Shown here piece by piece: positions 47,276 through 48,650 of a stretch of DNA of 64,000 bases; the stretch's first letter is position 1, and the number at the start of each line of letters is the position of its first letter. The notes beneath the pieces were generated by a model. That model worked only from the letters and a program-made list of their open reading frames with translations, did no database searches and was not told the DNA's origin. The DNA is taken from assembly GCA_035996875.1 (NCBI GenBank), contig DASYJD010000023.1, forward strand, positions 14,293 through 78,292. The letters run 5' to 3'. Position numbers and translations under genes: made by a program. The stretch comes from Thermoanaerobaculia bacterium (lineage in GTDB: Bacteria > Acidobacteriota > Thermoanaerobaculia > Multivoradales > UBA5704).

Positions 47276-48196
47276 ATGCCCAGAAAACTTCGCTTCGTCC
47301 CTCATTCCCGGACCCTCATCTCCATCACCTGCCGCACCGTCCAGGGCCGCTTCCTGCTCCGCCCCGGCCCCCAGTTCAACGACATCGTCCTTGGCGTCCT
47401 CGGACGAGCTCAGAGACGCTACGAGACCACCATTTCGGCTTTCTCGGCGCTCTCGTCGCATTTTCACCTGCTCCTGGTCGTCGACTCCGCGAGCGAGGCT
47501 GCCGTCTTCATGCGGTACACCAAGTCCAAGCTCGCCCGAGAGGTCAACCGCCTGACTGGTTGGCGAGGCCCTGTCTTCGACCGGCGCTACGAGATGACCG
47601 TCGTCACCGACGAGGACGCCGCCCAGATCGAAAGGCTGGCGTACGTCCTCAGTCAGTCCGTCAAGGAGAACTTGGTCGAACGGGTCAACCAGTGGCCGGG
47701 CGTCCACTGCGCGGGAGCGCTGATCGAGGGTACGCCTCTCGTGGGTCGCTGGTTCAACCGCACCCTGGAATTCGCCGCCCGCCTTCGCCACGAGGACGTT
47801 GGCCCGTTGCGGTATTCCACGGCTGAGGCTGTCACGTTCTCTCCCATACCTTGCTGGGCTCACCTGTCGCCTGTGCTCTACCGAGCCCGCATCGCGGAGA
47901 TGATCGAGTCCATCGAATCCGAAGCCGCCCGGGAAAGGGGACGCACCGGCGCCTCCGTGCTCGGCATCAGGGCGATTCTCGGGTGCGATCCGCTCCATCG
48001 CCCATCCTCCCTCGCCAGATCGCCAGCACCGCGCGTCCACGCCGCCACCAAAGCTGCGAGGAAGGCGTTCTACGAGATCTACGCCGCCTTCGTCGGTGCC
48101 TTCCGGGAAGCGTCCGAAAGGCTCCGCCGCGGAGACCGCAACGCGCCCTTCCCCTCCGGCAGCTTCCCGCCGGCCCTGCCCTTCGTGGCCGGATAG
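47276..48196 (+). CDS. IS200/IS605-type Y1 (HUH) transposase, RAYT-like (REP-associated tyrosine transposase) with C-terminal extension
   Basis: HUH motif SHFHLLLVV, then [11 protein letters not shown] (compare IS608 KGRSSRILRQEF) and the catalytic-Tyr region GPVFDRRYEMTVV (compare LWTNSYFISTVG). N-terminal PHSRTLISITCRTVQGRFLL matches the YH.vw..K.R motif. Confidence 0.7.
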   Translation: MPRKLRFVPHSRTLISITCRTVQGRFLLRPGPQFNDIVLGVLGRAQRRYETTISAFSALSSHFHLLLVVDSASEAAVFMRYTKSKLAREVNRLTGWRGPVFDRRYEMTVVTDEDAAQIERLAYVLSQSVKENLVERVNQWPGVHCAGALIEGTPLVGRWFNRTLEFAARLRHEDVGPLRYSTAEAVTFSPIPCWAHLSPVLYRARIAEMIESIESEAARERGRTGASVLGIRAILGCDPLHRPSSLARSPAPRVHAATKAARKAFYEIYAAFVGAFREASERLRRGDRNAPFPSGSFPPALPFVAG

Positions 48197-48650
48197 CGGC
48201 AGAGCCGGCGCTCTTTGACAGTCTCACAGCCCGCTTGAGGGCCAGACTCCTGAGCCGGAGGCTCGCGTAGGGAAAGGTGTATCCAGACTGGCGCTCGCGA
48301 TGTCCCTCACGAGGTTGTCAGCACGCGGGCTGCCCGCCGTCGGCGCCCCAAACCGGGCAAATGGAGCCGGCCTCCAAAAAGACACAGGCACTTGTTTGGC
48401 AGAAAATCCGTTCGCCTCCAAAAAGACTCAGGCACCTGTTTTGGCGGCGATGCTCTTTGACAGCCTCACCGCCCGCTTGAGGGCCAGACTCTTGAGCCGG
48501 AGGCTCGCGCAGGAAAAGGTGTATCCAGGGCTGGCGCTCACGATGTCCCTCCCGAGGTTGTCAGCGCGCGGGCTGCCCGCCGTCGGGGGTCCCAACCGGG
48601 CAAATGGAGCCGGCCTCCAAAAAGACACAGGCACTCGTTTTGGTTGCTCT
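48197..48650. repeat. tandem duplication of a ~235-bp unit immediately 3' of the RAYT gene, each unit carrying REP-like palindromes (CCAAAAAGACACAGGCACTTGTTTGG)
   Basis: Unit 1 ~48197..48443 and unit 2 ~48444..48650 are ~90% identical (gcggc..gctctttgacag.ctcac.gcccgcttgagggccagactc.tgagccggaggctcgcg...). REP copies at 48374..48399, 48418..48444 and 48617..48643. Confidence 0.65.

Follow-up and report, generated by a model that had tools for sequence, protein, structure and literature searches.

Y1 HUH enzymes are usually sorted into the selfish transposases of IS200/IS605 insertion sequences (IS) and the domesticated REP-associated tyrosine transposases (RAYTs), which service repetitive extragenic palindromes (REPs). 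Here we describe a locus in a Thermoanaerobaculia bacterium (assembly GCA_035996875.1, contig DASYJD010000023.1, positions 14,293–78,292) where a gene for a 306-aa Y1 enzyme, tnpA, lies among short repeats; the whole 64,000-nt stretch is termed the window, and coordinates refer to it. The locus is probably an intact copy of an undescribed, multi-copy, IS-like single-strand (HUH/Y1) transposon family, together with arrays of element pieces anchored at its right end (RE). The family appears to lie within the IS200/RAYT continuum, as an undescribed and widespread clade of ~306-aa Y1 HUH proteins.

IS608 and ISDra2 excise and insert one DNA strand, have no terminal inverted repeats (TIR) or target site duplications (TSD), and insert 3′ of a short flank (PMC3333891, PMC6006769). 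The Escherichia coli TnpA-REP protein, bound to a single REP, cuts at C↓T sites that are loosely specified and lie at variable distance, and tandem bacterial interspersed mosaic elements (BIMEs) are built by strand transfer or a rolling-circle-like reaction (PMC3333891). Class 2 RAYTs are defined by a Y---NP tyrosine motif; within them, subclass 2.3 has ~325-aa proteins with NHYH and YVDLNP motifs and 55 aa inserted between HuH and Tyr, occurs in Chromatiales and Alteromonadales in several diverged copies per genome, and has no REP (PMC6006769). Class 3 of Quentin et al. (2018), known from Acidobacteria and Planctomycetes, is represented by several related genes in a genome, with a Q-type Tyr motif and weak, atypical flanking structures, and was described as intermediate between IS and REPtrons. 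Its proteins have a median length of 178 aa, with NHVH, YV[VI]xEQ and Y----Q spacing, and its CnGA-footed structures reach ~600 copies in Solibacter (PMC6006769).

The transposase and the unit that carries it

A first-pass annotation, made from the letters of the window alone, had proposed an HUH (HFHLL) Y1 transposase much longer than classical RAYTs. Both points hold, as the key residues are His62 and His64 (HFH), Trp96 and a catalytic Tyr123 (YVLSQ), and the length is 306 aa as against 165 aa for E. coli TnpA-REP. His62-Phe-His64 is invariant in 24 homologs and aligns with the DHVH of ISDra2. Tyr123, also invariant in these, is the single catalytic Tyr. It lies on the helix that follows beta4, and its counterpart in the ISDra2 alignment is Y132, which is mutated in 2XO6. 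The alignment also pairs YVLSQ with the YIESQ of ISDra2, Tyr123 and Gln127 matching its Y132...Q motif; the window copy reads YVLSQS and the family Y[VI]L[SAG][QNH][SG], with Q, N or H at the variable position.

Fold comparison places the protein among the Y1 transposases. The nearest solved fold in the PDB is E. coli TnpA-REP (PDB 4ER8), and the PDB matches cover the N-terminal domain only, with none in the C-terminal half. No known domain matches the C-terminal extension of ~165 aa, whose conserved end is GSFPPALPFVAG, and the protein has no Y2_Tnp, helicase or Rep domain match. The best family match is NCBIfam NF047646 (REP_Tyr_transpos; 45.1 bits, E 8.9e-12, under the curated cut-off of 80); Pfam PF01797 (Y1_Tnp) scores 19.4 bits (cut-off 23) and NCBIfam NF033573 (IS200) 12.4 bits (cut-off 55). 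By fold and NCBIfam score the protein is closer to RAYT/TnpA-REP than to IS200 TnpA, although it falls below the curated cut-offs of both.

The gene is under purifying selection in every comparison (dN/dS 0.07–0.29), including that of paralogs within one genome, where dN/dS is 0.07–0.25 and dS 0.4–0.9. The ~306-aa clade comprises hundreds of 50%-identity clusters, mostly from uncultured Acidobacteriota and so far unnamed, and its distant members are almost all metagenome proteins.

The region 46900–48720 was compared by BLAST with paralog loci of OY970330.1, a complete 8.78-Mb Thermoanaerobaculaceae genome, and with 24 metagenome loci (loci numbered L001 etc.). Conserved DNA extends past the gene. 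Conservation common to all subfamilies begins ~32 nt 5′ of the ATG (47244), and within the window's own subfamily (L001, L004, L008, L016, L044) at ~47118–47122. The 3′ limit is 48397–48399, the final base of what had been annotated as a palindrome, and homology with all other full or truncated copies ends there, at ...TTTTGG. Elements of the family measure ~1.15–1.28 kb, and the window copy spans 47122–48399. In OY970330.1 there are intact paralogs at 3.44, 6.87, 7.24 and 8.01 Mb, whose gene neighbourhoods are unrelated and which all have the conserved flanks, as well as fragment clusters. The unit thus recurs with its boundaries in unrelated contexts, with purifying selection on the gene throughout. 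The gene is neither single-copy nor of domesticated appearance, with at least four intact, diverged paralogs in one genome, moving with conserved flanks. A partly domesticated state of the gene is possible.

The left-end (LE) region has two hairpins, GCGCA-N7-TGCGC (47129–47145) and ATCGCT-N11-AGCGAT (47224–47246), both different from the RE, followed by a conserved leader, GTTTTTCCGTTTTATAGGAGT, with a GGAG Shine-Dalgarno sequence. Each subfamily has a hairpin just 5′ of the shared ~32 nt, but its sequence varies (CTTACA-N5-TGTAAG in L003, L005, L006 and L009). The left boundary follows ...TTTTGG or ...CTGG in 8 of 10 loci: ...TTTTGG in L003, L005 and L006, ...CTGG/..GG in the window subfamily, and TTTTTG in L009. 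No TIR or TSD was seen at the element ends in the paralog loci compared.

Directly 5′ of the window copy is a stack of RE-like pieces, which consists of GGCAAAAAGAGCC repeated 2.4 times, GGGCTCTTTGG as a strong hairpin ending at 47093 (−16.5 kcal/mol, z −4.3), ...CACGTTGG to 47112 and CCAGTCTGG to 47121. A remnant of a second RE type, the B-type RE (AAGAAGAGCCTGGCNCT), lies 6–45 nt 5′ of the left end in four of the five other subfamily loci (L001, L004, L016 and L044, but not L008).

At the gene's other side, the 3′ non-coding module has, in order, an invariant GCTCTTTGACAG, CGCCCGC, GAGGGCCA, the hairpin GAGCC-GGA-GGCTC and GGGAAAGGTGT, and terminates in the RE motif CCAAAAAGACACAGGCACTTGTTTGG (48374–48399). 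The module is kept block-wise even at 66% protein identity (L012), the blocks that persist being GCTCTTTGACAG, CGCCCGC, GAGGGCCA, a GAGCC-N3-GGCTC hairpin and GGGGAAGGTGTG. The RE is its last 27 nt (TTCCAARAAGANNCNGGNNCCTNTTYTGG) and differs by subfamily: CCAAAAAGACACAGGCACCTGTTTTGG in that of the window, CCAAAAAGACCCTGGCTCCTGTTCTGG in L017, CCAAGAAGCCCCTGGCACCTGTTCTGG in L003 and CCAAGAAGAGCCTGGAACCTTTCCTGG in L009. The L009 sequence is the AAGAAGAGCCTGGCAC motif that had been noted as related to the window palindromes; it thus appears to be the RE of a sister subfamily, intact in L009.

Other roles for these sequences were considered. A structured RNA in the 3′ module was rejected, with no Rfam match in the whole window and weak covariation, and a coding function is ruled out by one-nucleotide indels. 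A sigma-54 promoter reading of the GGCAC cores was dropped, the window having a single TGGCAC-N5-TTGCW match, elsewhere and at chance level. Minus-strand intrinsic terminators at RE sites number 8, against 8.9 expected.

Two observations were made next to paralogs. At L002 only (OY970330.1), a 410-aa reverse transcriptase gene (RVT_1, 11206–12438) lies ~300 nt downstream of the Y1 paralog and convergent with it. At L007 and L010 another repeat family adjoins the sister-subfamily element 5′ of the gene (L007 ~440–640), in the form of tandem ~40-nt units with the palindrome CCCTGCAGGG / CCCCACGGGG (GCCCCACAGGGATTTCGCCAATCCCTGCAGGGATTGAGGGTT...).

Table 1. Element-derived features of the window
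Feature	Coordinates	Strand	Remarks
RE-like stack directly 5′ of the element	47054..47121	+	each piece ends TGG
LE region	47122..47275	+	homology among six loci starts with CGCCTTCGCGCATTTGCTGTGCGCAC
tnpA, HUH/Y1 enzyme gene	47276..48196	+	306 aa; open reading frame contains SSHFHLLL
3′ non-coding module, unit 1	48197..48399	+	conserved ~200 nt, ends in RE
Unit 2, minimal unit (solo RE), 45 nt	48400..48444	+	ends in CCAAAAAGACTCAGGCACCTGTTTTGG
Unit 3, 5′-truncated, 199 nt	48445..48643	+	second 3′ module, 93–94% identical to unit 1, ends CCAAAAAGACACAGGCACTCGTTTTGG
5′-truncated 3′ module (last ~128 nt)	39203..39330	+	ends in RE CCAAAAAGACCCAGGCACCTGTTTTG
tnpA fragment of another subfamily	39840..39912	+	equals gene positions 47777–47849
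Two B-type or chimeric RE units, CCCAAAAGACCCAAAGAGCCTGGCCCCTTGG and CAAGAAGAGCCTGGCGCTTTTGTGG	40753..40816	+	
Two 3′-truncated RE cores, CCAAAAAGACTCAGGCACCTGG and CCCAAAAGACCCAGGCACCCCG	42930..42980	+	abut shortened DinB gene
Internal tnpA fragment	45700..45793	+	codons ~69–100; 96% identical to 47480–47573
Solo B-type RE AAGAAGAGCCTGGCACTCCTGCTAGCGGG...	46401..46441	+	right-end motif of sister subfamily (intact in L009)
Solo B-type RE and doubled 3′ half (CACTCCGAAGGCGGGC twice)	58725..58775	+	adjoins IS91/Y2-like end fragment

Nested arrays that end in the RE

Derivatives of the element at the family loci have a common 3′ boundary, ...CTGTT(T/C)TGG, and a variable 5′ boundary. The smallest are 12–15 nt long (CACCTGTTTTGG; CCCCACCTGTTTTGG, present four times after the L001 copy), and others measure 30–45 (solo REs), 51, 85, 128, ~200, ~230, ~360 and 560–730 nt, up to full length. 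They are co-oriented and abut head to tail. L018 has four units in a row, L017 two and a 12-nt unit, and L014 two units with two solo REs; in L040, six pieces lie within 6 kb. An RE-type motif is usually found directly 5′ of truncated copies, and the doubling of 3′ halves extends to the B-type RE at 58725. By hand alignment, GG lies immediately 5′ of the breakpoint in the donor sequence at about two thirds of array junctions (e.g. CAGG↓CACC, GTTGG↓CCCG, CCGG↓CCCT, CGG↓GTTG and ATGG↓AGAC), and breakpoints at 47798–47800, 47837–47838 and 47879 recur behind different upstream flanks.

In the window, the full element that ends at 48399 is followed by a 45-nt unit ending at 48444 and a 199-nt unit ending at 48643. 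The tandem duplication of ~235 bp reported earlier corresponds to the units with these three ends. It does comprise two real units (48210–48286 versus 48452–48528, 94% identity; 48288–48397 versus 48531–48640, 93%), but their spacing is 242–243 nt; the program TRF did not list this two-copy repeat. The RE core CCAAAAAGACNCAGGCAC is present six times in the window (39305, 42930, 42960, 48374, 48418 and 48617), always on the + strand, with 0.10 expected by chance. All the sites listed as palindromes have the core, but the copies at 42930 and 42960 are without the 3′ half and hence are not palindromes. The motifs reported near 40790, 46405 and 58728 are also real: AAGAAGAGCCTGGCACTCC is exact at 46401 and 58725 and has 3 mismatches at 40793 (0.01 expected). 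The same is true of the ~130-bp module at 39203..39330, which is homologous to the 3′ module, and of the transposase gene fragment (Table 1). New in comparison with the earlier list are the second gene fragment, at 39840–39912, and the RE-like stack 5′ of the gene.

The internal tnpA fragment sits between two minus-strand genes, and the fragment of another subfamily has 82–85% identity to L002, L006, L007, L010 and L015. The DinB gene next to the 3′-truncated cores is cut short, with 76 aa and the N-terminal part only. A degenerate RE-core pattern finds ten element-derived sites in the 39–59 kb region, three matches in the first 36 kb and two others, with 1.7 expected window-wide from shuffles; the matches outside 39–59 kb look like chance matches. 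All eight element clusters in the window share one orientation, and the repeats listed earlier, which pepper the 39–59 kb region, are all derived from this element family.

A mechanism can be proposed by analogy with IS608/ISDra2 and E. coli TnpA-REP, in which the chemistry of cleavage, the strand acted upon and the rule of target choice are inferred, not observed. The enzyme would bind the RE on one DNA strand and cleave at its 3′ edge (...TGG↓). A second cut would fall at the true left end or, with loose specificity, at sites further upstream, frequently behind GG. The strand, released or copied, would then be joined 3′ of another ...TGG↓, for the most part where a resident RE ends. Through repetition of these steps, and strand transfer from RE to internal site, nested head-to-tail, RE-terminated units from 12–15 nt to full length would arise, and a cut inside the RE at GG↓CAC would give the reiterated 12–15-nt halves. 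The tandem units of the window, as well as the scattered hairpins and gene fragments at 39–59 kb, would be products of the same process. Such a mechanism would explain why the 3′ end is fixed and the 5′ end variable, why units lie head to tail and co-oriented, and why halves are reiterated.

On the other hand, the arrays could be fossils. The Y1 enzyme, possibly domesticated, would have another role, and host slippage, microhomology-mediated deletion and illegitimate recombination would have worked on old insertions. The array units are 89–93.5% identical to one another, i.e. 7–11% diverged, and young copies are not seen. The island is also a mosaic with other duplications (37830–38156 / 58817–59135 and 38600–38760 / 44818–44978) and IS91-like element remnants, and the GG junctions could equally be 2-nt microhomology in host-mediated deletions. 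Random deletion, however, does not explain dozens of independent derivatives at many loci with an identical 3′ boundary and variable 5′ ends. Also left unexplained are the reiterated 12–15-nt 3′ halves (four times in L001; L017, L018, L040; window 58745–58775), the location of truncated copies directly after RE motifs, and the common orientation of all eight window clusters. We consider a fossil origin rather unlikely.

Some observations do weigh against a mobile family with RE-anchored arrays. Besides the microhomology alternative, the GG rule comes from hand-aligned junctions and is true of only about two thirds of them. The pieces at 42930, 42960 and L040 5605–5654 are 3′-truncated, which shows that not all pieces are RE-anchored. 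Most RE copies have little hairpin potential and the L017-type RE does not fold; the RNAalifold covariation term in the 3′ module is weak, at only −0.98; and, unlike in IS200/IS605, a left-end structure resembling the RE was not found. Unlike those of active IS families, copies in different contexts are at best ~93% identical. A search through homologs of the neighbouring 1322-aa gene gave no empty-site/filled-site pair: those in L046–L048 (88–94% identity) lose all similarity at 48697–48710, so that their flanks allow no comparison. It is thus from paralog comparison only that transposition and the element's exact ends are inferred. The earlier suggestion of an active or recently active system is also unsupported, because copies in different contexts reach ~93%, array units 89–93.5%, and the local gene fragment 96% identity.

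The proposed transposon family is of interest in that the clade combines a RAYT-like fold and an apparently RAYT-like loose processing with the gene mobility of an IS. From the natural array junctions, a cleavage specificity (...TGG↓) can be predicted and put to the test. The clade could throw light on the origin of REP systems from insertion sequences, could account for some of the fine-scale mosaicism seen in the accessory islands of these large soil genomes, and could supply a new sequence-programmable single-stranded DNA nuclease/ligase for HUH-tag use.

REP sequences and the accessory island

The first-pass annotation had viewed the palindromes as a REP family associated with a RAYT. In a classical REP/RAYT system (REPtron), a domesticated and essentially immobile Y1 gene serves short palindromic REPs or REPINs throughout the genome, and the repeats here would be local copies. 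The best family match and the nearest solved fold agree with this, as do the RE-like motifs on both sides of the gene (47066–47093 and 48374–48399), a few solo REs away from gene pieces (L031, L037, L041), and paralogs that are old and under purifying selection, with no recent copies found. Nevertheless, the family score of 45 is under the curated cut-off of 80, and the Tyr motif is YVLSQS, not Y---NP (PMC6006769).

The repeats themselves differ from REPs. In most RE copies the fold is no more stable than that of shuffled sequence (−3.3 to −6.5 kcal/mol, z +0.5 to −0.3); the best-folding RE is the copy at 48405–48450 in unit 2 (−9.5 kcal/mol, z −2.7). The conserved 5′ tetranucleotide of REPs, a GT[AG]G foot, is absent before the RE, where (C/T)T is found instead. 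When 185,579 species-representative genomes were scanned with the exact AAAGACNCAGGCACYYGTTT pattern, which leaves RE variants of other subfamilies uncounted, 18 stretches were found. Six matches are in OY970330.1 and two in another Thermoanaerobaculia metagenome-assembled genome (MAG), and the remainder are singles in unrelated taxa, at about chance level. In OY970330.1, two matches are REs that belong to full copies (L032, the same as L001, and L044), three are in the 6-kb fragment cluster of L040, and one is solo (L037). Of the two findings by which the first-pass annotation would have been refuted, one is made: the palindromes do not occur beyond element-bearing loci, but the protein does have its catalytic Tyr. 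The first 36 kb of the window have no RE-core matches above chance. Furthermore, the flanking REs are direct and not inverted, and the gene with both flanks recurs as a unit at no fewer than four sites per genome. The palindrome is better seen as the 3′ terminus of a gene-carrying unit, and we find it decidedly improbable that the locus is a REPtron.

A canonical REPIN-like pair is nonetheless present in the window at 16277–16518. It consists of GTAG-AGACGCCCCGCGGGG-CACC-CCGTGGGGCGTCT at 16292–16326 (−19.4 kcal/mol, z −4.9) and an inverted partner at 16469–16504 (−19.1 kcal/mol, z −5.1), ~140 nt apart; each has a 15-bp stem, and one REP of the pair has the GTAG foot. The GTAG REP is also found in a related MAG (twice in L003, three times in L044), and in most loci no linkage of the pair with the 306-aa gene is seen, a further point against the REPtron interpretation. 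It looks like the real REP family of the genome.

All neighbours of the element at 36–47 kb lie on the minus strand; they are unrelated accessory genes of small size, and encode AHSA1, an M20 peptidase, two glyoxalases, an M90 peptidase, a truncated DinB, DsbA and DoxX. Element pieces are present in 7 of ~11 intergenic gaps there (38.5–47.3 kb), all in the + orientation and antisense to these genes. This antisense co-orientation may reflect replication-coupled strand bias, local hopping, or a role of RE arrays as assembly points of accessory genes. In OY970330.1, elements are + at 2.26, 2.28, 3.44 and 8.01 Mb and − at 6.87 and 7.24 Mb. A replichore-bias test was set aside: the orientations fit a two-arc split, but half of random patterns would, and the strand of the genes confounds local GC skew.

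Another interpretation is one-ended copy-out by a rolling circle, as in IS91/ISCR/Helitron elements, whereby the RE is a fixed termination signal, and sloppy initiation upstream leads to copying of variable DNA, including neighbouring genes. The 3′-anchored, 5′-variable pattern and the pieces in intergenic gaps would fit, and the antisense arrangement is found in L001 and L040 as well. But a single catalytic Tyr is present in the enzyme, which lacks helicase and Rep domains, the RE-bounded segments of different loci have no gene cassette in common, and replication-coupled peel-and-paste with local hopping explains the co-orientation equally well. Rolling-circle copying is very improbable.

A bolder idea keeps the Y1 enzyme. 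If it needs only the 27-nt RE and cuts upstream almost anywhere after GG, it would be a one-ended, RE-terminated copy machine that, by pasting again and again behind its own ends, builds co-oriented arrays into which, or together with which, accessory genes are assembled. This is improbable; were it true, the system would be a bacterial Y1 analogue of ISCR/Helitron gene capture or, alternatively, an integron-like cassette platform with an HUH nuclease in place of a tyrosine recombinase, and the machinery would have as its specific parts the conserved ~200-nt 3′ module and the protein's C-terminal half. As to integrons themselves, an attC reading was discarded: a few GCCTAAC/GTTAGGC-like cores are seen by eye, with no paired R''/R' architecture and no sharing of cassettes between loci.

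The island has other features. Two giant adjacent genes on the minus strand (48711–58089) encode proteins of 1322 and 1792 aa with no Pfam match. The 1322-aa protein has full-length homologs (61–94% identity) in Acidobacteriota, Candidatus Brocadia, Caballeronia, Mucilaginibacter, Chitinophagaceae and Phenylobacterium, and the pair is kept in three close relatives with different flanks, homology ending at 48697–48710. It seems to be a highly conserved two-gene module that moves horizontally. A direct repeat of ~330 bp (37830–38156 and 58817–59135, 92–93% identity, 21 kb apart), whose right-hand copy duplicates, with a frameshift, the 5′ end of the M20 peptidase gene, brackets the whole accessory segment with the Y1 element and the giant genes. 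Sequences like 58506–58702, 39146–39200 and 59219–59406 are contiguous in L040, which suggests that a ~20-kb segment was inserted or rearranged here.

A ~200-bp fragment at 58506–58705 is 73–92% identical to the flanks of Y2_Tnp (IS91-family) genes in L001, L003, L021 and L040, and is the remnant of an IS91-like element end, beside the B-type RE at 58725. A 161-nt direct repeat (38600–38760 and 44818–44978, 84% identity) represents a detached duplicate, at 38600–38760, of the 3′ end of the DoxX-like gene (44824–45639). Finally, a tandem array at 59730–60307, between a 161-aa open reading frame and a 1213-aa ABC2/M1-peptidase gene, has ~13–14 units of 42 nt with the palindrome (A/G)GGGCACG-N3-4-CGTGCCCT(C) and two alternating spacer types, TCCTTACG... 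and TCTTAAACACGAGACG...; it resembles a BIME or a CRISPR array.

Comparison with described single-strand elements

The family shares with IS200/IS605 a Y1 HUH transposase and strand-specific, co-oriented pieces; it may also share the lack of terminal inverted repeats and of an evident target duplication, and a left end that abuts a short specific flank (...T/CTGG). It differs in that the protein is twice as long and scores below the Pfam Y1_Tnp and NCBIfam IS200 cut-offs, the ends look dissimilar, with little structure in the RE, a long 3′ module is conserved, tnpB is absent, and copies are old and diverged, not near-identical. We know of no description of nested 5′-truncated arrays as a feature of IS200/IS605.

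The similarities to IS91/ISCR/Helitron elements are the HUH chemistry, one sharp and one variable end, and tandem or one-ended products, and IS91-like remnants share the same islands. These elements, however, have two catalytic Tyr (Y2, YxxxY), with a helicase in Helitrons, whereas a single Tyr and a Y1 fold are found here.

Compared with TnpA-REP/RAYT of E. coli, the protein is longer, with a C-terminal half that matches no known domain, and YVLSQS replaces Y---NP. There is no GTAG-footed stable hairpin, the RE copies are few and direct and do not form inverted BIME/REPIN pairs, and the gene is multi-copy and moves with its flanks. Subclass 2.3 approaches the protein in length and is like the family in its several diverged copies per genome and its lack of a REP, but the family has SHFH and YVLSQS, no 55-aa insertion and a different C-terminal tail. 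Class 3 resembles the family in its Q-type Tyr motif, its weak and atypical flanking structures and the presence of several related genes in a genome, but differs by its published signature from the SHFH, YVLSQS and 306 aa found here. None of the 12 described TnpA-Y1 subclasses (PMC6006769) fits the family, class 3 having been compared by its published signature.

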